NCBI GenBank assembly: GCA_963768055.1
Contig: CAVYGN010000001.1
Coordinates: 1,248,001-1,312,000, forward strand
From: an uncultured Spirochaetota bacterium
Lineage (GTDB): Bacteria; Spirochaetota; Brevinematia; Brevinematales; JAOACQ01
DNA length: 64,000 nucleotides
Direction of reading: 5' to 3'
Part shown: in pieces, positions 1,868 to 35,781 of the stretch
How the letters are laid out: the number at the start of each line of letters is the position of its first letter
Position numbering within the stretch: position 1 is the stretch's first letter
Made by a program: the position numbers and the translations under genes
The notes under the pieces: model-generated
What the model was told of the DNA's origin: nothing
Databases searched by the model: none
Seen by the model: the letters and a program-made list of their open reading frames with translations, nothing else

Positions 1868-2431
1868 TTACCGCAAACCATGAACCTTCAAATACAGCAG
1901 CGCTATGATCGTCTTCGAGTCTTCTATCTTCCCCTCGTCTATCATCGACAGGGCCTTTTCAAAAGGGACCCTCTCGCAGGCTATGAATTCATCGTCGTCG
2001 GGATCAGTCGAACCGGCCGCGAGGTCCGAAGCTTTGAAAAGGTGCAGCCTCTCCGTGCTGTAGCCCGGGCATGGAAAATACGAGCAGAATAGCTCGAGCT
2101 TTTGGGCTTTATATCCCGATTCCTCGAGCAGTTCCCTTTCCGCGGCCGACTTGAGGTCTTCCGACGGGCTGTCGAGTTTTCCCGCCGGGATTTCGTAAAT
2201 AACCCGCCCTATCGGATACCTGAACTGCCTCACAAGGATAATATCGGTTTTATCGATGAAGGGGACTATTCCGACCGCTTCCGGGTAGAACACATAATCC
2301 TTTTTCGCCTCCCTGCCGTCGGGAAGCCTTACAAGGTCGGATTTAAAGCTGAAAGATTTGCCGGTGTGAATAATTGAACTGTTTATCGTATGCTCTTTTA
2401 AATCGCTAAAATGCGTTCTGCCTGATTTCAT
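1868..2431 (-). CDS. NUDIX hydrolase, ADP-ribose pyrophosphatase-like
   Basis: RQFRYP plus Nudix box EIPAGKLD...AERELLEESGY; DDDEFI. Confidence 0.88.
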   Translation of the reverse strand: MKSGRTHFSDLKEHTINSSIIHTGKSFSFKSDLVRLPDGREAKKDYVFYPEAVGIVPFIDKTDIILVRQFRYPIGRVIYEIPAGKLDSPSEDLKSAAERELLEESGYKAQKLELFCSYFPCPGYSTERLHLFKASDLAAGSTDPDDDEFIACERVPFEKALSMIDEGKIEDSKTIIALLYLKVHGLR

Positions 2432-3830
2432 TCTCGAAACCGCCTTTTGAAAAATTGCTTATCGGCGAAGGGTATTCGCCGTCAAAACAGGCCTTGCAGT
2501 AATCGTCGAATACGGCTTCTTCGTCGAACAATCCTTCAGTGCTAATATAACCGACGGATTCAACCCCGATGAATTTAGCTATTTCTTCCAGAGAACCTGT
2601 TATATTGGCAAGCAATTCCTCGTAAGTTGAAAAATCGATACCGTAATAGCATGGATGTCGTACCGGGGGCGAAGCGACCCTGAAATGGACTTCCGCGGGG
2701 GAACAGCTTCTGACCAGTTTCACGATTTTACGCGAGGTGGTGCCCCTGACTATAGAGTCATCGATCAAAACAACCCTTTTACCCTCGATTATCTCCCTCA
2801 CCGGGATAAATTTCATCTTTACGCCGAAATCCCTTATTTTTTGCGAGGGCTCGATAAATGTTCTGCCTATGTAATGGCTCCTTATTAAACCGAGGGCGAG
2901 CGGAATTTTCGATTCGTGCGAATAGCCCAGCGCAGATACCATACCGGAATCGGGAACAGGGATAATATAATCCGCTTCGACGGGATGTTCCCTCGCCAGT
3001 TTTCTGCCGATTTCAAACCTGTAATTATATACGCTTTTATCAAAAACTTTCGAGGAAGGCTTTGAAAAATATATCAATTCAAAAACGCAATGGTTCGGTT
3101 TTACTTCTTTATCGGTAATCTTGTAACTCTCAATTCCTCTTTCAGTTACCACGGCAATCTCATTGGGCTTCACATCCCTGATTTTCGATGCTTCCACTAT
3201 TGAAAAGGCGCTGTCCTCAGAAGCGAATACTATGGTGTCGCCCATTTCAGGAATATTTGTCCCGATTTTCCCCATCGAAAGCGGGCGGAATCCCATAGGG
3301 TCTCTTGCGGCGATAAGCATGTCCTTTGAAAGAACAAGCAGAGAAAAAGATCCCTCAAGCCGGCCAAGGGCAAATTTCACTGAATCGATAAGGTTATCCG
3401 CAGGGGCATCCGCTATAAGCTGAAGAATGACCTCGCTGTCGCTCGAAGAATGAAAACTCATACCTTTCCCCATCAATTCTTCCCTTATCGCATTTGCGTT
3501 TGTGATGTTGCCGTTATGGGAGATAGCTATGGCCCCCTTGGAAATTGCGGCGGTGATGGGCTGCGCGTTGACCAATGCCGGCGAACCGGTTGTCGAATAC
3601 CTTACATGGCCTATCGAACTGTAGCCCTGAAGATATGAAAGTATGGGCTCGTCAAAAAAGTCGCTTACGCGGCCAAGACCAACCTGTTTATATAAAAATG
3701 AACCGTCCGAACTCACTATGCCGCAGGATTCCTGCCCCCTGTGTTGAAGCACAGTCAGTCCAAGATATACATATCTGGACGCCTCACTTAATCCGAAAAT
3801 CCCGAATACCCCGCATTCTTCCTTTATCAT
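2406..3830 (-). CDS. purF: Amidophosphoribosyltransferase
   Basis: EECGVFG, LQHRGQES, GHVRYST, PRPP motif LIDDSIVRGTTS, YCKACF. Confidence 0.97.
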   Translation of the reverse strand: MIKEECGVFGIFGLSEASRYVYLGLTVLQHRGQESCGIVSSDGSFLYKQVGLGRVSDFFDEPILSYLQGYSSIGHVRYSTTGSPALVNAQPITAAISKGAIAISHNGNITNANAIREELMGKGMSFHSSSDSEVILQLIADAPADNLIDSVKFALGRLEGSFSLLVLSKDMLIAARDPMGFRPLSMGKIGTNIPEMGDTIVFASEDSAFSIVEASKIRDVKPNEIAVVTERGIESYKITDKEVKPNHCVFELIYFSKPSSKVFDKSVYNYRFEIGRKLAREHPVEADYIIPVPDSGMVSALGYSHESKIPLALGLIRSHYIGRTFIEPSQKIRDFGVKMKFIPVREIIEGKRVVLIDDSIVRGTTSRKIVKLVRSCSPAEVHFRVASPPVRHPCYYGIDFSTYEELLANITGSLEEIAKFIGVESVGYISTEGLFDEEAVFDDYCKACFDGEYPSPISNFSKGGFENEIRQNAF

Positions 3831-3851
3831 TTAACCGATTCACCCCCTTCC

Positions 3852-4616
3852 TTATTTTACATAGAGTTTTCTTATTTTCAAATATTCATCTTTTTTAAGC
3901 GGCGAATAAATACAGAACTGGTTCTTGCCCAGGAATTTTGCCTCGTATAATGCATTGTCAGCTTCGTTCTGCAGCTTCTGAAACAACTTATCGATACCTT
4001 CAGGTTCAAGCAATTTTTTTTCTGTAAAATGATACTCTACAAACGATATTCCTGCGCTTACGCTTACAAAAATTTTTTCTCCAATGCATTCAAGGACTAT
4101 GCTTCTGATCTTTTCAAGTATTTTATCACAGAATATTATAGCACCCTTTAAATCCGTCGATGGAAGGATCACATCGAATTCTTCCCCGCCGAAACGGATC
4201 GCGTAGTCCGTAGGCCTTGAATTTCCCCTGATAATAGAAGCTATTTCAATAAGGACCTTGTCGCCGATATCATGGCCGTATTTGTTATTAAAATGGGAAA
4301 AATCGTCGATGTCGAAACGAACAAAGGAAATGGGATACACAATTCCCTTCATTCCAAAAAATATCCTGGATGCCGTTTTTATTATCGTAACAAGGTAATC
4401 GCCCCTGTATTTAAGAAGGTTTGTTTTTTCGTCTATATTGATCTTTTTTTCCAAAAGTTTGTACTTGTCAATAAGAGCAAAATAATCAAGTTCCGAAAGC
4501 CTTAAAGCTTCCACGATATCGTCCGTAACAGCGTCATAATTAAGCAGATGGGTCAGGAGCTGGATATTCCTGATCTGAAACTCGGATAATATTTTTTCTT
4601 CTTTTTTCGGTTTCAT
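3852..4616 (-). CDS. Diguanylate cyclase (GGEEF) with RxxD I-site
   Basis: DIDDFSHFNNKYGHDIGD, RPTD...RFGGEEF, ADNALYEAK. Confidence 0.9.
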   Translation of the reverse strand: MKPKKEEKILSEFQIRNIQLLTHLLNYDAVTDDIVEALRLSELDYFALIDKYKLLEKKINIDEKTNLLKYRGDYLVTIIKTASRIFFGMKGIVYPISFVRFDIDDFSHFNNKYGHDIGDKVLIEIASIIRGNSRPTDYAIRFGGEEFDVILPSTDLKGAIIFCDKILEKIRSIVLECIGEKIFVSVSAGISFVEYHFTEKKLLEPEGIDKLFQKLQNEADNALYEAKFLGKNQFCIYSPLKKDEYLKIRKLYVK

Positions 4617-19255: not shown

Positions 19256-21451
19256 ATGAATTATATTGATGAAAATTCATTGGCAAAAATAATCAATTTT
19301 GAACATTATGATCCTTTTGAAGTTTTGGGTTATCATGAAATTTCTATAAACGGGGAAAAGTCCGGTTCTATAAGCGCTTTCATCCCGGCCGCAAAAGGTA
19401 TTTCTGTTATTGAGATTCAAACAGGCCGGGAAACGCCGATGGAACTCATTCATCCCGACGGTTTCTATATTTACATCAATTTATCGGGACCTGAATTCTT
19501 CCCCTATGAGTTAAAAATCATTTATGATAATGGATATACGCAAATAACACGCGATCCCTATTCGTTTCTTCCTGTAATTTCAGAGTATGACAGGCATTTA
19601 TTTAATGAAGGAAGCCATCAGGAAGCATATGAAAAACTCGGAGCCCATATTATTAATATTGACGGCGTTAATGGCGTCCATTTTGCAGTTTGGGCCCCGA
19701 ATGCAAGAGCCGCCAGTGTTATCGGAGATTTTAACGGCTGGGATACCCGGCGTCATCAAATGCGGGTATTAGGCCAATCAGGCATATGGGAAATTTTTAT
19801 TCCGGGCATTTCCGAGGGTGATATTTATAAGTTTGCAATTAAAACAAAAGACGGCTCGGTTTTTTTTAAAGCCGATCCATTTGCATATTATTCCGAACTT
19901 AGGCCCAAGACAGGCTCAATTGTCTGGAATATAGGCAAATTTGAATGGAGCGACAGGGATTGGCTGGTTAAAAGGGACAGCGGTCGCAATCTCGATAAAC
20001 CGATGACAATTTATGAGCTCCATCTAGGCTCATGGATGCGGGTGCCTGACGAAAACAACCGTTCCCTGACCTACAGAGAGGCCGCAGTCAAAATCACCGA
20101 ATATATAAAAAAAATGAATTATACTCATATTGAGTTGATGCCGGTTGCGGAACACCCTTTCGACGGGTCATGGGGTTATCAGATTACCGGTTATTTCGCT
20201 CCTACAAGCCGTTTCGGGACTCCGGAAGATTTCATGTATTTTATCGATTATCTCCATCAAAATGAGATTGGAGTACTTATTGACTGGGTTCCGGGCCATT
20301 TTCCCAAGGATGCGCATGGCTTATGCTGGTTTGACGGGACAGCACTTTATGAGCATTACGATGACAGGAAAGGAGAGCAAAGAGACTGGGGTACGAAGAT
20401 ATTCAATTTCGGCAGGAACGAAGTCAGGAATTTTTTGATATCAAACGCCCTGTTCTGGCTTGGAAAGTACCATATAGACGGGTTCAGGGTCGATGCTGTA
20501 GCTTCTATGCTATATCTTGACTACAGCCGGAAGGAAGGGGAATGGATTCCTAACCAGTACGGCGGAAGGGAAAATCTGGAAGCGATAGATTTTATTAAAA
20601 AGATGAACGAACTTGTTTACAACCGCTTTCCAGGCGCGATGACTATCGCTGAAGAATCCACGGCATTCGGCGGTGTATCGAGGCCGACATACGTTGGAGG
20701 GCTGGGTTTCGAATTTAAATGGAATATGGGATGGATGCATGACTCCCTGGTCTATTTCAGTAAAGAACCGGTTTATAGAAAATATCACCAGGGGACTCTC
20801 ACTTTCTCAATGATATACGCTTTTAGTGAAAATTTCATACTTGTACTTTCTCATGATGAAGTGGTTCATGGAAAAGCATCTCTGCTGTCCAAAATGCCGG
20901 GGGACATATGGCAAAAATTTGCTAATTTAAGGCTTCTGTACACATATATGTTTACTCACCCGGGTAAAAAAATGCTTTTTATGGGACAGGAATTCGGACA
21001 ATGGGACGAATGGAATGCGGATAAAAGTTTAGACTGGCATCTTACTGCATACGAACCCCATTACAGGCTCCAGAAATTAGTTTCCGATCTCAACTTTTTG
21101 TACAGGAACGAACCGGCCCTTTACGAGATAGATTTTGAACCCGGCGGATTCGAGTGGATAGATTTTTACGATTCCGACAATAGTATTATCAGCTTTATCA
21201 GGAGGGCTAAGGACGGAAAATTCATAGTTGCTGCACTTAATTTTACGCCTGTGCTCCGTAACAATTATAAAATAGGAGCTATAGCTAAAGGCTTTTACAG
21301 GGAAATTTTCAATTCCGATTCCGTCAAATACGGCGGCAGCGATAACGGAAACAACCCGGGAATTACATCATCCGACGAACCCTGGAACGGCAAACCCTTT
21401 TCTCTGGAAATAACACTACCGCCGCTCGCAGGTGTGGTTTTTAAACTGTAA
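19256..21451 (+). CDS. glgB: 1,4-alpha-glucan branching enzyme
   Basis: [45 protein letters not shown]. Confidence 0.97.
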
Positions 21452-21472: not shown

Positions 21473-23554
21473 ATGAAAACTGAAAAGGTAAAAAAAAGAT
21501 TAAACAAAAATTTTATGGTGATATCTCTTTCCACCCTTGTTTTCTGTATTATCGGAGGGCTGTACTATTTGGTACCGATGATAATTCCCGATTTTAATGT
21601 TTTTCAGGGTATCGAGAACAATTCGGTTGATTTCCGTTTTACTGCAAAAAATTACATGGATAGTGTAATTTTCAAAACAGGGAAAAACGGAATATATAAC
21701 AGGATAGTTATAGCCGCAATAGATGACGAAACGATCATCGATAACAGCGGATGGCCCTTCGACAGGAAAGTCTGGGCCGATGCCCTTAACTTCCTGAACG
21801 ATTCGCTCTCAAGGCCGGGCCTCACATTCTTCGATATTGATTTCAGCGACCCCAGCCAGAAGCCCGAAAGCGACAGAGCGCTTATTAAAGCCTTCAAAAA
21901 TTACAGGGGGAGCCTTGGCGAAGATATTATCCTTGAAGCTATCGAAGGGCTTGACTTAAACGCGCTTAAAACCGGCGGAGAGGAATCGATCGAAACCAGG
22001 GATAACATTATAATACAAAAAGCGATGGATTACGATTCTGAAAGGATAAAGGCCCTGAAAAAATTCGAAATAAAGGTTACAAATGAAATAAACACTCTTT
22101 ATCCGATAGTTTCCCCTCTTCTTAAAGAGCTCCCGGAATACCTCCAGTTTGTCGGCGCAGCCAATATCGAATCGCGTGAAAAGACATACAGGGCTGTTCC
22201 GGCTATCCCCTTCATCAATCCTGTTTTTTACAGGATATTGGGCCCGGATGGAAAATATTCCCTTACAAATATATGTTATCCTTCGATAATCCTTGCAATA
22301 GTCCTGAATGAACTTAAAGCAGGGCTCTCGGATGTCGTTCTCGGGGATCATGCAGTGATTATTAAAAATGCCTTATATAAAGGGCGGAGGTCTGATTTCA
22401 GCATACCGGTGGATGAAAACTTCCAGATGAGCATAAATTACAGGTCAGGCCCGCGCAGTTCATATATCATGAAAATACCGTTCAGAAATCTTACTACCGC
22501 AAGGCTGCCCGAGGATTCAATGCTTTTTATCGGCATGTATTCGACAAAGGGCAGCAGGGATTTATATAATTCGCCGGTGGGAGAGATGTTCGGGGTAGAG
22601 CACCTGGCATACGCAGTAGGCACCATACTCAGCAGGGATTTCCTCTATGATGCCCCCGAGTGGATGAATCTTATATACATGTTATTTTTGACTGTATTTG
22701 TAGGCTTTGCGACATCCCGGGGACTCAAATACATAGTAGGCGCGGCCTCATTATCCATAATACTGCCTATCGCTTTAGGAGTCATAGCTTTTCAATTCAA
22801 CTTTATCATCTCGACGCTGATCCCGGCAATAAGCGGAATAATAGCCCTCTTAACGATCCAGATTTACATGCTTTTCACCGAAGAGAAGGAGAAAAGTTTT
22901 ATAAAAACCACTTTCTCAAGTTATCTTAACCCCAAACTTGTCGACATCCTTATCCAGAACCCGGAAAGGATACAGCTCGGAGGCGAAGATAAAGAGATCA
23001 CTGTCCTTTTTTCGGCCATTAAGAACCTCGGGGACATAACAGCAGGCATGGGTGCAAAGGAGCTTATAGGCTTCTTAAACGATTATTTTTCAATGATGGC
23101 AGACATAGTGATGGACACAAGCGGAACTCTCGACAAGTACATCGGGGACTCGGTAATGGCGTTCTGGGGAGCCCCTATAGATATTCCCGACCACGCGATA
23201 AAGGCCTGCGAAGCAGGATTAAAAATGTTAGAGACGGTTAAGGATTTCAATAAAAAAAGAAGTGAAAAAGCCCTTGATCCGATCAATGTTAATATAGGGA
23301 TCAATACCGGCTGCATTATTGTCGGAAATGTCGGATCTGAGAGCCAGAAAAACTATACAGCGATAGGCGATCCGGTAAACCTCGCCTCGAGGCTCAAGGG
23401 CCTTAACAAGTTTTACCATACCCAGACCGTTATAAGCGAATATACATATGAAAAGATCAGGGACCGCTGCCTGGCAAGAGAACTGGACCTTACGCGGGTA
23501 AAGGGGAAATTAAAGCCTGTAAGAATATATGAACTCCTGGATCTTAAACTATAA
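21473..23554 (+). CDS. CHASE2-TM-class III adenylate cyclase, subunit A (first metal-binding Asp lost)
   Basis: CHASE2 motifs IDD...GWPFDR, FDIDF, GVEH; TM helices; cyclase LFSAIKNL, DKYIGD, YTAIGDPVNLASRL, VKGK. Confidence 0.9.
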   Translation: MKTEKVKKRLNKNFMVISLSTLVFCIIGGLYYLVPMIIPDFNVFQGIENNSVDFRFTAKNYMDSVIFKTGKNGIYNRIVIAAIDDETIIDNSGWPFDRKVWADALNFLNDSLSRPGLTFFDIDFSDPSQKPESDRALIKAFKNYRGSLGEDIILEAIEGLDLNALKTGGEESIETRDNIIIQKAMDYDSERIKALKKFEIKVTNEINTLYPIVSPLLKELPEYLQFVGAANIESREKTYRAVPAIPFINPVFYRILGPDGKYSLTNICYPSIILAIVLNELKAGLSDVVLGDHAVIIKNALYKGRRSDFSIPVDENFQMSINYRSGPRSSYIMKIPFRNLTTARLPEDSMLFIGMYSTKGSRDLYNSPVGEMFGVEHLAYAVGTILSRDFLYDAPEWMNLIYMLFLTVFVGFATSRGLKYIVGAASLSIILPIALGVIAFQFNFIISTLIPAISGIIALLTIQIYMLFTEEKEKSFIKTTFSSYLNPKLVDILIQNPERIQLGGEDKEITVLFSAIKNLGDITAGMGAKELIGFLNDYFSMMADIVMDTSGTLDKYIGDSVMAFWGAPIDIPDHAIKACEAGLKMLETVKDFNKKRSEKALDPINVNIGINTGCIIVGNVGSESQKNYTAIGDPVNLASRLKGLNKFYHTQTVISEYTYEKIRDRCLARELDLTRVKGKLKPVRIYELLDLKL

Positions 23555-23572
23555 TTTGTTAAGGAGGGGGGT

Positions 23573-25702
23573 ATGGCCGGGAAAAATAAAATCGGAAAAT
23601 CGAGCACCATAATACTTATATCTTTGGCTGTAATTCTGTTTATTGCCGGGATGTTTTACCTGCCGCATGAATATGACTTTCTGTCGGTCAGAAAAGTCCT
23701 CCATGCTTTTGAAGACCTTTCCATCGGCTGGAGGTTCGTCTCCAAGTCCTTTCAAACGGGCACTTTTGTGCAGGTCAAGGGCGCGATTCACCGCAACCAG
23801 GTCCCGGGCATTTATTCTAAAATGACCATCTTCGAACTCGATGACGACTCAATCAGTTATTATAAAAGCTATCCTATCGATAGAAAGGTATGGGCGAAAC
23901 TGCTGGACCATTTTAATTCATCCAACTCGATTTATAAAAAACCCCATTTATATCCCCCCGATCTTCTTTTGTTCGATATTTTCTTCGATAAACCAAGCCC
24001 GAACACCGATAGCGACGCCGCCCTGGCAAAATCATTCGCTTCATTCAGCCAGCCTGCTGGCGGAGATTTTATGCTTTACCCTATTCCTATGTTCCGCCCT
24101 CAGCTTGATTCAGATAATTACATAATCGATGAAAAAGACAGAAAAACTATTATAAAAGAAGGGCTTTCCTACGATTCTCCCGAAGCCGCCGCTTTGCAAA
24201 AATTCGAATTAAATACAGGCCTTAAACCCGGGGAAATAAGACCCTTTTACAAGGTAAAATCCATAATAGGAAAAATATCGGAGAACCTTACTTTTTCGGG
24301 CTTTGTGAATACCGAGCCTATCGAACCCGGGGAAGATATATACTGCAAAAATCCCCTGGTCCTTCCTGTGGGATACTATATCGAGGAAAACGGGAAATTA
24401 AAAATAACTAATATATACTACCCTTCGATAGCTTTGTCGGCCGCCGTAAAACTCCTTGGCGCGGATTTGAAGGATGTAGTTCTCGAAAAGGGCAAAGTAA
24501 TTATTAAAAACGCCGTCTGGCATGGCGGAAAAAGCGACTTTTCAATACCGGTGGATAATGAGTACAGGCTTTTGATAAATTATAAAGCGACAGGCCCTTC
24601 CGGCTTCATACAAATTATGCCCATTAAACTGGCTGAGCATGCCCAATTTCCTAAAAATTCAATATTTCTTATCGGTGTAGCCACTTCCGGAATATCGGAT
24701 AACAAATGGCTTTCCCCCCTTGGGGATATGTACAGCGTGGAACATATAGGATATTCCATCGGGACAATATTAAACAGGGATTTTATTAATGAAGTCCCAT
24801 TACCCTTTGAACTTGCTTACCTCATCGTTTTTACGATCTTGATCGGGATCCTGCTCTCAAGGGGGACCGGAACGGCCATTATAGCCCTTCTGCTTGCAAT
24901 AATATTTCCGCTTTTTCTCGGCTTCGCGCTATTTCAGATTAATATAATGATAGTTACACTTATACCTATTATCACAGGAGGTCTCGCCCTCGTTGCCGGT
25001 GAAATATTTATTATACTTACGGAGCAAAGGGAAAAACGGTTTATAAAATCCACTTTTTCTAAGTATGTCAGTCCGGATCTTGTTAATATCCTTGTGGCAA
25101 ACCCAGAAAAGATCGAACTTGGAGGCCAGGATACGGAGGCGACAGTCCTCTTTTCAGATATAAGAGGGTTTACAACCCTTTCGGAAGGTATGCAGCCGAA
25201 GGATCTCATAGGTTTTTTAAACCTGTATCTGACAAGAATGACCAACATTGTCATGGAGACAAAAGGAACCCTGGACAAATATATAGGAGACGCTGTTGTC
25301 GCGTTTTGGGGTACGCCGATCGAACTCCCCGACCATGCGCTTAAGGCATGCCAGGCAGGCCTTAAAATGATCGATTCCATGAACGCTTTTAACGAAGAAC
25401 AGGTAAAGTTGGGAAATAAGGCGATAAATATCGGAATAGGCCTGAATACAGGGAACATTACCGTAGGTAATATCGGATCGGAAAAGAAGAGAAATTATAC
25501 GGCGATCGGCGATAATATGGATATGGCTGAAGACCTTCAGGATGAAAATAAATTTTATCAAACCAATGTTATTATCAGCCAGTTCACTTATGAAAAAATC
25601 AAGGAATGGGCCGTTGTCAGGGAATTGGACAGTATTTATGTAAAGGGTCATAATAATCCGATAAAGATATACGAACTTATGGATTTGACTAAATGGGATT
25701 GA
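23573..25702 (+). CDS. CHASE2-TM-class III adenylate cyclase, subunit B (catalytic Asn/Arg lost)
   Basis: CHASE2 motifs YPIDR, FDIFF, SVEH; cyclase LFSDIRGFT, DKYIGD, YTAIGDNMDMAEDL. Confidence 0.9.
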   Translation: MAGKNKIGKSSTIILISLAVILFIAGMFYLPHEYDFLSVRKVLHAFEDLSIGWRFVSKSFQTGTFVQVKGAIHRNQVPGIYSKMTIFELDDDSISYYKSYPIDRKVWAKLLDHFNSSNSIYKKPHLYPPDLLLFDIFFDKPSPNTDSDAALAKSFASFSQPAGGDFMLYPIPMFRPQLDSDNYIIDEKDRKTIIKEGLSYDSPEAAALQKFELNTGLKPGEIRPFYKVKSIIGKISENLTFSGFVNTEPIEPGEDIYCKNPLVLPVGYYIEENGKLKITNIYYPSIALSAAVKLLGADLKDVVLEKGKVIIKNAVWHGGKSDFSIPVDNEYRLLINYKATGPSGFIQIMPIKLAEHAQFPKNSIFLIGVATSGISDNKWLSPLGDMYSVEHIGYSIGTILNRDFINEVPLPFELAYLIVFTILIGILLSRGTGTAIIALLLAIIFPLFLGFALFQINIMIVTLIPIITGGLALVAGEIFIILTEQREKRFIKSTFSKYVSPDLVNILVANPEKIELGGQDTEATVLFSDIRGFTTLSEGMQPKDLIGFLNLYLTRMTNIVMETKGTLDKYIGDAVVAFWGTPIELPDHALKACQAGLKMIDSMNAFNEEQVKLGNKAINIGIGLNTGNITVGNIGSEKKRNYTAIGDNMDMAEDLQDENKFYQTNVIISQFTYEKIKEWAVVRELDSIYVKGHNNPIKIYELMDLTKWD

Positions 25703-27432
25703 AACCTCTTAATTACGGGTTTGCACTGCTTCTGTTTGTTTTTTGTTCATGCACCTCCGGTCTTATAAAAGAAGAGCAGGAAAAGCAGCAAACAAATCTC
25801 TCTGCAGCTATTTTAGACTCTATAGTAAAGCGCTATACTATCATAATATACCCCTTCCGGAATCTCACAGGCGAAGGGGACCTCGATTATTTGACAAACG
25901 CAATTCCGGATATGCTTGAAAACCATTTAAAACCGATAGAAAGCGAAACATCATTTATACCCTTTGAAATTGTGGATTTCAGCTTGAATTCGAATGTAAT
26001 AAATCTCGTTGAGGCTTCGAATTCTATTTTTACAAATTATCTTATTTTACAGCCGGTTACATTGACGCAATACAAAGCTGATACAACGTTAGGCAATATC
26101 AATTCCATTATTACAACAAATTTGGTGAGTACAAATTCTACAAATTCAACAAATACAAATACTAATACGAATAAAGTGATTGTCGCCAATTATACAATCG
26201 GAGGCCAGCCCTATATCATCAGTACGAATATGAACACAAATATTATCACAAATTCAATAATTACAAATATAATACAGACCAACCTCCCAAAATTGACCAG
26301 GGAAAATTATATGGCCCTTATTTTAAACGAATACACGGATTTGACGAATATAATATGTTTCATGCCTATCGATATAACAAACAGGGGGATCGGACATACC
26401 AACGCGTTATCAAATTCAGTTAATTTATCGAATTCTATAAGCAATAATTATTCTATAAGCAATAACTATTGTGAAGTTCGTGGAAGCTACTCCCTGGTTG
26501 AAAAACGGCAGGGTCCGAACCTGCTAAAAGTCGATATGACCGCTGTTTTCGTTATGAATGGAACGAATATTATTAAAAGGGAAATAACAAGCAGAGAGGA
26601 CAGGCTTTCCGAAAAGATTTTCGATTTCGTGAAACCGATCAGAAGGCTTAGCCTGAATAAAGAAACCGGCGATATTATTATCGATTCCCAGCCGGAGGAC
26701 GCCAGCATTTATTATGACGGTATCTTTATTGGAAAGAGCCCCTTATATTATCCATCGATTCCCGCAGGACAGCATGTCTTTTCATTTTTAAAACAGGGGT
26801 TTTCTCAGGTTGTCGTTAAATCCGATATCCTTACGAACAGGACAAATATAATTTATAAACCGATAGAACAACTCCAGACCGGAGGGATAGTAAGTATCAA
26901 GTCCGAACCGTCCAATGCTCTAGTTTATATAGATTCTTCTTTTGTGGGCAAAACACCGATTGTGCTTACAGATCTGACTATCGATACCCTGCACAGGGTC
27001 ACAATAGAAACCACGGCTTCAAACTACTTTCCGTTTTATAATAACTTTACGTTGCATAATACAAATATCCAATATGAAATCGATGCGACGCTTACCGGAA
27101 TTCAGGGTACTCCTGATTGGGAACGGCGTTTGAATTGGTATGGAGTCTACGCGGGATGGGGCGTTACAGCCTTTTTCGTCGCTTTGAATATCTACGCCGA
27201 TTATGAAAAACAGTACTATGAGGATCAGGTTTTTAACCAGGGAAACAGCGATGCGCAGGCTGGCGTCAGCTTTTATGACAATCTTAATCATACAACGACT
27301 ACGTGGGGTGTGGTTTCCGGCATTGTGACATTGGGCTTTACCTGCGTTGCCCTCTTCAATGAGGAAGTCTACCTGGGATTGCGAAGCACATCGCCCTCGG
27401 ATATCGACGCGTATCTAGCCTTGAGATTTTAA
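25693..27432 (+). CDS. PEGA-domain lipoprotein with Asn/Thr-rich region
   Basis: Lipobox-like FVFCSC; PFRNLTGEGDLDYL (TolB/CsgG-like start); two PEGA repeats (DSQPEDASIYYDG...GKSPL; KSEPSNALVYID...GKTP); C-terminal hydrophobic helices. Confidence 0.75.
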   Translation: MGLKPLNYGFALLLFVFCSCTSGLIKEEQEKQQTNLSAAILDSIVKRYTIIIYPFRNLTGEGDLDYLTNAIPDMLENHLKPIESETSFIPFEIVDFSLNSNVINLVEASNSIFTNYLILQPVTLTQYKADTTLGNINSIITTNLVSTNSTNSTNTNTNTNKVIVANYTIGGQPYIISTNMNTNIITNSIITNIIQTNLPKLTRENYMALILNEYTDLTNIICFMPIDITNRGIGHTNALSNSVNLSNSISNNYSISNNYCEVRGSYSLVEKRQGPNLLKVDMTAVFVMNGTNIIKREITSREDRLSEKIFDFVKPIRRLSLNKETGDIIIDSQPEDASIYYDGIFIGKSPLYYPSIPAGQHVFSFLKQGFSQVVVKSDILTNRTNIIYKPIEQLQTGGIVSIKSEPSNALVYIDSSFVGKTPIVLTDLTIDTLHRVTIETTASNYFPFYNNFTLHNTNIQYEIDATLTGIQGTPDWERRLNWYGVYAGWGVTAFFVALNIYADYEKQYYEDQVFNQGNSDAQAGVSFYDNLNHTTTTWGVVSGIVTLGFTCVALFNEEVYLGLRSTSPSDIDAYLALRF

Positions 27433-34542: not shown

Positions 34543-35781
34543 ATGCCGGAAGAGATCGTATTCGAGGTAGCCAACTTTAAAAAAAATTCCTATATCATCA
34601 TTGAAGACCAGGAAGATTCCAACGAATTTTTTATAATTAAACAGGGCAAAGTCATTGAAAACCGCTTTGCATCGGCGATCGAATCGGAGAGCGGTACAAA
34701 CCTGACAGTCGGAGATTTCTTCGGGGTAATATCCTGCATGACAAAAAGGCCCAGGATTGAAACCGTACAGGCAGTCGAAGACACCTCTACGATAGTTGTC
34801 AAAAGAGAATACTTCGGCTCCCTCATTCAGAAGAACACGCCTATTGCCATGAAAATACTCAGGTATTTCGGCAGGCAGCTCAGATATTACGATTCGCTAT
34901 TGACAAAAATGACTCTTAAATCCTCTATTGAAGAAAATCCCAATTATCTCTTCAACATCGGCGAGTATTATAATTCGATGAATATGCCGACCAATGCCGC
35001 TTATGCTTATCTCCATTATATAAAATTTTGCCCTGACGGCGGCTATGTCCCCATGGCTAAAATGAAACTGGCTAAGATCAATCCGTCGCAGGATGCGCTC
35101 CTGCCTGCAAAGGAAAGTTTTTATTCGCTGTATAAAGACGGCCAGATAATTTTTCTTGAACATGAACCCGGAGCTGAATTATATATACTGCAGGAAGGAA
35201 AAATTAAGATAACAAAACTGGTCAATAATAATGAGATCCTTTTAGCCGTTCTTAAGAAAGGGGATATTTTCGGCGAAATGTCTTTACTTGACAACAAGCC
35301 CAGAAGCGCCAGCGCTATCGCTTTCGGGAACGCTAAATTAATGGTTGTAAGTAAGGCCAATTTCGAACCCATGGTTCAGGCCCATCCTGAAATTGCAACA
35401 AAAATAATAGAACTTTTGAGCGAAAGAACATGGATAATATATAAGCAATTTTCCAATGTTTTAATAAAAGATCCTATCGGGAAATTATATGATGCTCTAT
35501 ATACACATCTGCAAAAGGCCCGGGTACCGATAAACCCGAGCACGGCTCATACTTTTGATTTCGGGTCTGAAGAGCTGATAAAATTAGTCGGTTTCAACTC
35601 CGAGGAAGGTCATATCAATATAAAAAAGTTTTTCGACGAGGACAAAACTTTAAGTATTCAGGACGGTAAAATTTTCTCAAAAGATGTAACCAGTATAGAA
35701 AAGATGGTACATGTTTACAGAAGGAATATGGAACTTGAGAAAAAGCGTTTGGCCCCTCAGCAAACCTCCTCGTTGTATTGA
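34543..35781 (+). CDS. Tandem cNMP-binding domain protein (Crp/Fnr-like) with central TPR-like segment
   Basis: GDFFGVISC...PRIET and GDIFGEMSLLDNKPRSASA; LFNIGEYY...AYAY; ATG 34543. Confidence 0.85.
   Translation: MPEEIVFEVANFKKNSYIIIEDQEDSNEFFIIKQGKVIENRFASAIESESGTNLTVGDFFGVISCMTKRPRIETVQAVEDTSTIVVKREYFGSLIQKNTPIAMKILRYFGRQLRYYDSLLTKMTLKSSIEENPNYLFNIGEYYNSMNMPTNAAYAYLHYIKFCPDGGYVPMAKMKLAKINPSQDALLPAKESFYSLYKDGQIIFLEHEPGAELYILQEGKIKITKLVNNNEILLAVLKKGDIFGEMSLLDNKPRSASAIAFGNAKLMVVSKANFEPMVQAHPEIATKIIELLSERTWIIYKQFSNVLIKDPIGKLYDALYTHLQKARVPINPSTAHTFDFGSEELIKLVGFNSEEGHINIKKFFDEDKTLSIQDGKIFSKDVTSIEKMVHVYRRNMELEKKRLAPQQTSSLY

Follow-up and report, generated by a model that had tools for sequence, protein, structure and literature searches.

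Two adjacent genes of an uncultured Spirochaetota bacterium from the order Brevinematales, here called A and B, are predicted to encode an obligate heterodimeric adenylate cyclase with one ATP site and one degenerate, acidic pseudo-site. We assign this reading a probability of about 0.78. The genes lie on the forward strand of the 64,000-nucleotide stretch of DNA analysed here (the window; assembly GCA_963768055.1, contig CAVYGN010000001.1, positions 1,248,001 to 1,312,000), which is part of a genome of 3.69 Mb in 2 contigs, and the public name of both is only 'adenylate/guanylate cyclase domain-containing protein'. The six catalytic residues of a class III cyclase are incomplete in either chain, and the full set is found only across A plus B. 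The initial annotation of the window took this reciprocal loss of half-sites to imply an A:B heterodimer. As a prediction, this is strongly supported by the retention of the pattern in orthologous pairs, by the canonical residues of single-copy relatives and by a mirror-image relaxation of the two cyclase domains. We infer the physical heterodimer, its activity, its specificity for ATP and the co-transcription of its genes.

Gene A (21473..23554, + strand, 693 aa) and gene B (23573..25702, + strand, 709 aa) were assigned as CHASE2/membrane/class III cyclase subunits by their open reading frames (ORFs), Pfam matches, residue alignment and conservation in the clade. An alignment of the two proteins with 707 columns shows 42% identity (E 2e-179). 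At the curated Pfam cut-offs of 26.3 bits for CHASE2 and 21.9 bits for Guanylate_cyc, each contains a CHASE2 sensor domain (PF05226; A, aa 40-411, 21590..22705, 88.7 bits; B, aa 79-426, 23807..24850, 65.3 bits) and a class III nucleotidyl cyclase domain (PF00211; A, aa 507-681, 22991..23515, 78.6 bits; B, aa 522-702, 25136..25678, 80.0 bits), all encoded on the + strand. A crude hydropathy scan, which does not resolve the number of helices, revealed an N-terminal transmembrane (TM) helix and, ahead of the cyclase domain, a hydrophobic stretch around aa 400-465. In both proteins the CHASE2 domain is located between these two elements, which is the layout of CHASE2 receptors. The spacer between the genes (23555..23572, + strand) is 18 bp long and contains the sequence AGGAGG (23562-23567) 5 nt ahead of the ATG of gene B.

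In class III cyclases, the metal-binding Asp residues come from one protomer and the substrate-binding and transition-state residues from the other (PMC4174876). We located these positions by residue-by-residue alignment to the catalytic domain of CyaB from Pseudomonas aeruginosa (PDB 3r5g, class IIIb). The closest solved relatives by sequence are 6fht, a phytochrome-cyclase fusion, 3r5g and 2w01, with E values between 2.8e-33 and 1e-30 for A and between 7e-39 and 7.3e-33 for B; 3r5g matches A with 6.6e-31 and B with 7.3e-33, and 6fht is slightly better against both. Protein A reads A515/K555/D559/T629/N636/R640. Its first metal Asp is gone (A515, codon GCC, 23015..23017, + strand), and FSAIKNLG faces the FSDIRGFT of CyaB. 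The Lys, the Thr, the transition-state Asn and Arg (N636 to R640, NLASR, 23378..23392, + strand) and the lysines of the VKGK loop are retained, which makes A 'C2-like'. Protein B reads D529/K569/D573/T643/D650/D654, with MDMAEDL facing the VNLASRL of CyaB. It is 'C1-like' in retaining both metal Asp residues and the phosphate loop (F527 to E538, FSDIRGFTTLSE, 25151..25186, + strand, including the first metal Asp D529) and in lacking the transition-state Asn and Arg and the second VKGK lysine. Pseudomonas CyaB, unlike A and B, combines complete FSDIRGFT and VNLASRL motifs in the same chain. Class IIIb is defined by a Thr instead of an Asp at the substrate-specifying position, and the Lys and Thr of this class are present in A (K555/T629) and in B (K569/T643) and invariant in all orthologues. 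A Lys-Asp/Thr pair specifies adenylyl cyclases (PMC6005667). The initial annotation had described two adjacent paralogues 18 bp apart, each of CHASE2-TM-cyclase architecture, and had listed the same six positions and the same two motif replacements; the ORFs and sequence identity, the Pfam scores with the hydropathy scan, and the alignments to 3r5g, respectively, bear out this description.

The reciprocal pattern is shared by related genomes. The search covered 40 relatives and then the whole order, 35 species genomes including that of the pair, and counted full-length relatives at E <= 1e-80. Two copies per genome were present in 10 of the 11 relatives of family f1, the exception (G009) being a genome only 57% complete, and in all four genomes of family f4. 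A single copy was found in each of the seven genomes of families f2, f3 and f5, and likewise in each of six genomes of f7, a sister family at class level. At this threshold, neither the pair nor the single-copy type had a full-length relative in the 12 genomes of family f6 (G016, G020, G023, G026-G034), which are small (1.4-2.3 Mb); each of them yielded a single match to another cyclase, at about 1e-40 to 1e-45. All 14 complete pairs, which represent two GTDB families and six genera, show the reciprocal loss. In the upstream gene of all 14, the first metal Asp is replaced by A, T, G or S and the K, T, N and R are kept, the NLASR stretch being invariant. The downstream gene keeps D, K, D and T, with 11 of the 12 residues of the F527-E538 stretch invariant, and has D or E at the Arg position throughout; its Asn position holds D, E, N, Q, T or I, and some orthologues (G003, G004) thus retain the Asn. 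In a collection of B-type proteins (n=14, B itself counted), D or E stands at the Arg position in 14/14 and the second VKGK lysine is lost in 13/14.

Two incomplete or metagenomic cases extend this series. If the residues at metal Asp1, Lys, metal Asp2, Thr, Asn and Arg are written as a six-letter code, genome G024, in which the pair is split over two small contigs, carries a B-type DKDTIE and an A-type fragment SKETNR, and the metagenome contig L153 carries AKNTNR (A-type, 2389-4470) and DKDTNE (B-type). The search for adjacent pairs in related genomes that the initial annotation had suggested thus found the complementary pattern kept in 14 complete pairs, in G024 and in L153. With the pair described here counted among them, one subunit has the metal Asp residues without the transition-state residues and the other the reverse, as in C1/C2-type cyclases, in 16 pairs. 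In the A-type proteins of f4 (L056, L057, L058) the second metal Asp is also replaced by Glu (SKETNR). The metal face of A therefore seems, from f4 (Glu) and L153 (Asn), to keep decaying, as expected if it is unused. Single-copy orthologues read DKDTNR without exception (13/13). Outside Brevinematales, DKDTNR was found at 73 of 74 CHASE2-cyclase loci from genomes of other phyla, the remaining locus being misaligned, and none of these 74 loci has a second cyclase ORF within about 4.5 kb. The main cyclase of the other metagenome loci reads DKDTNR in 79/79. Two of the metagenome contigs, L157 and L170, have an upstream second cyclase gene that retains the second metal Asp, the Asn and the Arg; the first metal Asp is readable in L157 only, the L170 gene being cut at the contig end. 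No further independent reciprocal pair was found among the 74 genome and 79 metagenome loci of other phyla, which were ranked by likeness to A or B and say little on unrelated cyclase families.

A comparison of column entropies in 14 A, 14 B and 13 single-copy sequences revealed that relaxation extends beyond the catalytic residues and is a mirror image in the two proteins. Twelve columns are relaxed in A only (515, 519, 520, 523, 524, 531, 543, 560, 606, 607, 641 and 653). Among them are the metal face and the complete D-I-R-G-F-T-x-x-S-E phosphate loop, both invariant or nearly so in B and in the single copies. Ten columns are relaxed in B only (in A numbering 567, 633, 635, 636, 637, 676-679 and 683); they correspond to the G-D-x-V-N-L stretch and the V-K-G-K loop, both conserved in A and in the single copies. 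In mammalian C1/C2 structures, the first set belongs to the protomer that contributes the metal and phosphate contacts and the second to the protomer that contributes the ribose, transition-state and gamma-phosphate contacts. This distribution suggests that the lost faces of A and B meet in the same pocket of an A:B dimer and that the other pocket is complete. Elsewhere the constraint is strong, with 63 (A) and 79 (B) of 187 cyclase-domain columns invariant. Beside the lost Arg, B has acquired fixed residues of its own: S has become E at 653, G has become D at 657, E stands at 658, and Q is found at 656 in 13/14 sequences. The resulting acidic motif A/T-E-[D/E]-L-Q-D-E-N-K lies in the stretch D650 to K660 of B (DMAEDLQDENK, 25520..25552, + strand). 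In A, K is fixed at 642, where single copies have E, and K mostly replaces R at 517.

The position of the pair suggests how it arose. Across Brevinematales the order is glgB, one or two cyclase genes, and a gene for a PEGA-domain protein. In the window, glgB (glycogen branching enzyme; Pfam, synteny) is located at 19256..21451 (+ strand), 21 bp before A, and the PEGA gene (579 aa; ORF, Pfam PF08308, synteny) at 25693..27432 (+ strand), its start overlapping the end of B by 10 bp. The glgB gene is the left-hand neighbour in all 20 loci fetched from the order, the PEGA gene the right-hand neighbour of the cyclase gene or genes in 14 of them, and the seven in-order single-copy genes (f2, f3, f5) occupy the same slot, with glgB upstream and the PEGA gene downstream. 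A always precedes B; with each ORF taken from its first start codon, the gap is 10-20 bp in 13/13 relatives, 18 bp here and 21 bp in L153. In a maximum-likelihood tree of 49 full-length proteins with 8 outgroups, the A clade and the B clade each received a support of 100, their sister relationship 85.9 and the in-order single copies 96. The two clades branch largely in parallel, though not identically: f4 groups with G005 among the A proteins and with genus g4 among the B proteins. Most simply, a single tandem duplication would have taken place in situ in a common ancestor of f1 and f4. According to this scenario, an ancestral member of the Brevinematales duplicated a canonical CHASE2 class IIIb cyclase gene in the slot flanked by glgB and the PEGA gene, after which each copy would have lost the opposite half of its active site.

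We propose that A and B together make up a single receptor adenylate cyclase, each being one subunit of it. Since class III sites span the dimer interface, only A:B would have a complete site. To the ATP site, B would contribute the metal-binding D529 and D573 and the phosphate loop, and A the adenine-specifying K555 and T629, the transition-state N636 and R640 and the VKGK lysines. The pseudo-site would be built from the decayed metal face of A (A515) and the decayed Asn/Arg face of B, which now bears the fixed acidic motif. An A:A dimer would be without metal ligand and a B:B dimer without Arg, often without Asn, and without the Lys, so that both homodimers should be inactive. Moreover, the acidic helix of B would face two Asp residues in B:B, resulting in repulsion, and would face A515 and K517 in A:B. 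The acidic motif might thus select the partner or, alternatively, bind a cation or ligand. The 18-bp spacer suggests that the two genes are co-transcribed, B being provided with a Shine-Dalgarno site of its own. The product would be cAMP, and the output would depend on a heteromeric pair of CHASE2 ectodomains. The CHASE2 regions of A and B are 36% identical to each other; 37 columns are invariant among the 14 A orthologues, about 35 in each of the A and B sets, and 13 are common to A and B. On these grounds the ectodomain pair is likely to be heteromeric, too. The genome contains 13 matches to cyclic nucleotide monophosphate (cNMP)-binding domains, which indicates that cAMP receptors exist. 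Two cNMP-binding domains occur together in one 425-aa frame at about 34573-35385 of the window (G000:C1:1282573-1283385), about 9 kb downstream of the pair.

More tentatively, A:B could be a natural two-sensor receptor cyclase in which unlike CHASE2 ectodomains gate a single ATP site and the acidic pseudo-site has taken on a new role. We regard this extension as doubtful, though worth considering. Its pseudo-site would combine E653, D/E654, D657 and E658 of B with the metal face and the lineage-fixed K517 and K642 of A. It might serve as an electrostatic latch that would exclude B:B in favour of A:B, or as an allosteric site for a cation or small ligand. The initial annotation, too, had suggested that the acidic pocket could be allosteric and that the dimer might integrate signals from two CHASE2 domains.

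Several observations weigh against the heterodimer as outlined above. The adenine-specifying Lys and Thr of B are invariant and the second metal Asp is kept in most A orthologues; the pseudo-site is thus not fully decayed, and it might bind something, or the homodimers might retain function. Complementing halves of Rv1625c with unlike membrane anchors were active and not ligand-regulated (PMC4821796), which means that control by two different sensors cannot be taken for granted. Another possibility is that A or B associates with a canonical cyclase encoded elsewhere in the genome. Promoter-like sites number 31 where 25.1 are expected and terminator-like sites 11 where 9.4 are expected, which leaves co-transcription at the level of a prediction. 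Finally, an approximately unbiased (AU) test does not reject a clade of B and the single-copy genes (p 0.108), which leaves room for other dates of the duplication, including an older event followed by loss.

The alternative that survives best is that A, B or both are dead pseudo-enzymes that act as sensors or regulators and pair promiscuously with canonical class III cyclases, without a dedicated A:B enzyme. Partners would be available, as the genome has 15 PF00211 matches; of the 13 besides A and B, two are weak, and among the rest 10 keep both Asp residues, the Asn and the Arg and one is without the Arg. Thus, at least 10 further cyclase domains are complete in these residues, and class III domains are alike enough to cross-dimerise in engineered systems (PMC4821796). 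Against such free exchange, A and B are adjacent and in the same order, 10-21 bp apart, in every genome that has both on one contig, and no genome with one type alone was found among those searched. Their losses are exactly complementary and the retained halves invariant, and dedicated membrane anchors would usually drive pairing. We consider promiscuous pairing unlikely.

Still less probable, in our estimate, is that homodimers of A or of B are functional by means of stand-in residues, a different chemistry or weak activity. Conservation is strong over the whole of both proteins, the D, K, D and T of B do not vary, and the B orthologues of G003 and G004 even have the Asn. However, the replaced positions are variable, with A/T/G/S at Asp1 and D/E/N/Q/T/I at the Asn position, and no new catalytic residue has become fixed there. 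The phosphate loop of A and the VKGK loop of B are relaxed as well, and Rv1625c proteins in which one Asp or Arg is mutated have no activity on their own (PMC4821796).

The accuracy of the key codons was examined in Logan contigs, which are assemblies of public runs and not raw reads. Positions 23015-23017 are covered without difference by contigs of two studies, X1 (record 1, 22700-23415) and X3 (record 17, 22920-23071), and positions 25520-25534 by contigs of X1, X2 and X3. X1 derives from peat and is about 99% alike; X3, from freshwater sediment, is identical throughout and may be the source sample. The initial annotation had pointed to the GCC codon at 23015-23017 as a weak spot; GAC occurs at this place in neither the X1 nor the X3 contigs, and all A orthologues are without Asp there. 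That the deviations are sequencing or assembly errors or mark decaying pseudogenes is extremely improbable: GCC is indeed a single base from GAC, but contigs of two studies match at the codons, 15 other pairs, each from a different genome, show these losses too, both ORFs are intact, and the 63 (A) and 79 (B) invariant cyclase-domain columns hold across 14 orthologues. The pattern is judged not to be an error because orthologues share it, which is stronger evidence than the contigs, and it is regarded as old and under selection. In one X2 contig, with a depth of about 3, an additional A follows 23571 and position 23551 reads C, so that the spacer immediately ahead of the start codon of B differs in a related strain.

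The proposed A:B heterodimer resembles several known systems. Mammalian membrane adenylyl cyclases combine C1 and C2 in one active site, to which a single domain contributes the metal Asp residues, and one pseudo-site (PMC4174876), B corresponding to C1 and A to C2. The mammalian enzymes carry both halves on the same polypeptide with 2 x 6 TM helices, belong to class IIIa and are regulated by G proteins and forskolin. In contrast, the spirochaetal pair consists of two genes with a CHASE2 domain each, belongs to class IIIb, has an independent bacterial origin according to the tree and a pseudo-site of acidic character. Its organization is not of the mammalian TM1-C1-TM2-C2 type, since the two ORFs are parted by a stop codon and 18 bp, the anchors are of the CHASE2 kind and the tree places the duplication inside Brevinematales. 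The alpha and beta chains of soluble guanylyl cyclase are, like A and B, two polypeptides with sensor-type N-terminal domains of their own that form one catalytic and one pseudo-symmetric site. The pseudo-site of this enzyme is reported to bind nucleotides. Unlike the pair, soluble guanylyl cyclase is a eukaryotic, soluble GTP cyclase regulated by nitric oxide through haem, and its genes are not adjacent operon paralogues. Thus, A and B would be functionally like mammalian C1/C2 and the alpha/beta guanylyl cyclase without being members of the mammalian family.

The same logic was demonstrated in the laboratory with Rv1625c. On its own, neither the D300A nor the R376A mutant is active, whereas the two complement one another (PMC4821796, citing Guo et al. 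2001), so that a metal-Asp mutant and an Arg mutant are active together, as proposed for A and B. Unlike the natural pair, these are constructs of a homodimeric enzyme, and it is the second metal Asp that is lost, compared to the first in A. The rhodopsin-guanylyl cyclases RGC1/2 and NeoR of chytrids also have clustered genes and two unlike sensors and work only as a heterodimer (PMC8815786); unlike the pair, they are eukaryotic. The CHASE2/membrane/class III cyclase architecture itself is found in CyaD1, CyaD2 and CyaK of Sinorhizobium meliloti (PMC13001267) and in the guanylate cyclase Cya2 of Synechocystis, which is described as a homodimer (PMC6005667). A reciprocal loss of half-sites is not reported for CyaD1, CyaD2, CyaK or Cya2 in the texts consulted.

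Bacterial class III cyclases are regarded as monomers that homodimerise, a 'fundamental difference' from the eukaryotic enzymes (PMC4821796), and the duplication and fusion that led to pseudo-heterodimeric cyclases have been placed in an early eukaryote, the bacterial ones again being homodimers (PMC9552081). As far as these sources go, both agree with the statement of the initial annotation that characterised bacterial enzymes are homodimers. Text searches of the literature, which left the main subscription-journal reviews uncovered so that an earlier printed remark is possible, yielded no natural bacterial heterodimeric class III cyclase. A and B most likely work only as a mixed pair, a C1/C2-like arrangement that has been described for animal cyclases and not for bacterial ones. 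If our reading is true, the conserved pair would be an independent, unfused replay of the path that led to the asymmetric cyclases of eukaryotes, and the C1/C2-type division of labour could arise by duplication without fusion and outside eukaryotes. The acidic pseudo-site would then be a prokaryotic counterpart of the forskolin site and of the pseudo-symmetric site of soluble guanylyl cyclase. The pair would bear on the evolution of asymmetric from symmetric cyclases, on the upkeep of pseudo-sites and on the joint control of one site by unlike sensors. For annotation, it is a warning that neither gene is likely to be active alone despite the name cyclase.

Some further features of the genome and of the locus deserve mention. 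L013 (G000:C1:698522-698920, outside the window) is a stand-alone cyclase-domain protein of 179 aa that is without a sensor domain and has Leu in place of the transition-state Arg (DKDDNL); it may be another non-autonomous cyclase subunit. In f2, f3 and f5, an ORF of 264-266 aa lies between the cyclase and PEGA genes (L059:3417-4211(-); L060:6737-7537(+); L061:6863-7660(+); L064:3534-4331(-)). It is not present at pair-bearing loci and occupies the slot of gene B. It has no Pfam match, and its only relative in the genome of the pair is a weak paralogue with 29% identity; by eye, it contains motifs that we take to resemble those of GHKL ATPases. The PEGA protein begins with a hydrophobic, Cys-containing leader resembling a lipoprotein signal and, as a frequent neighbour of the cyclase genes, may be a functional partner of the CHASE2 sensors.

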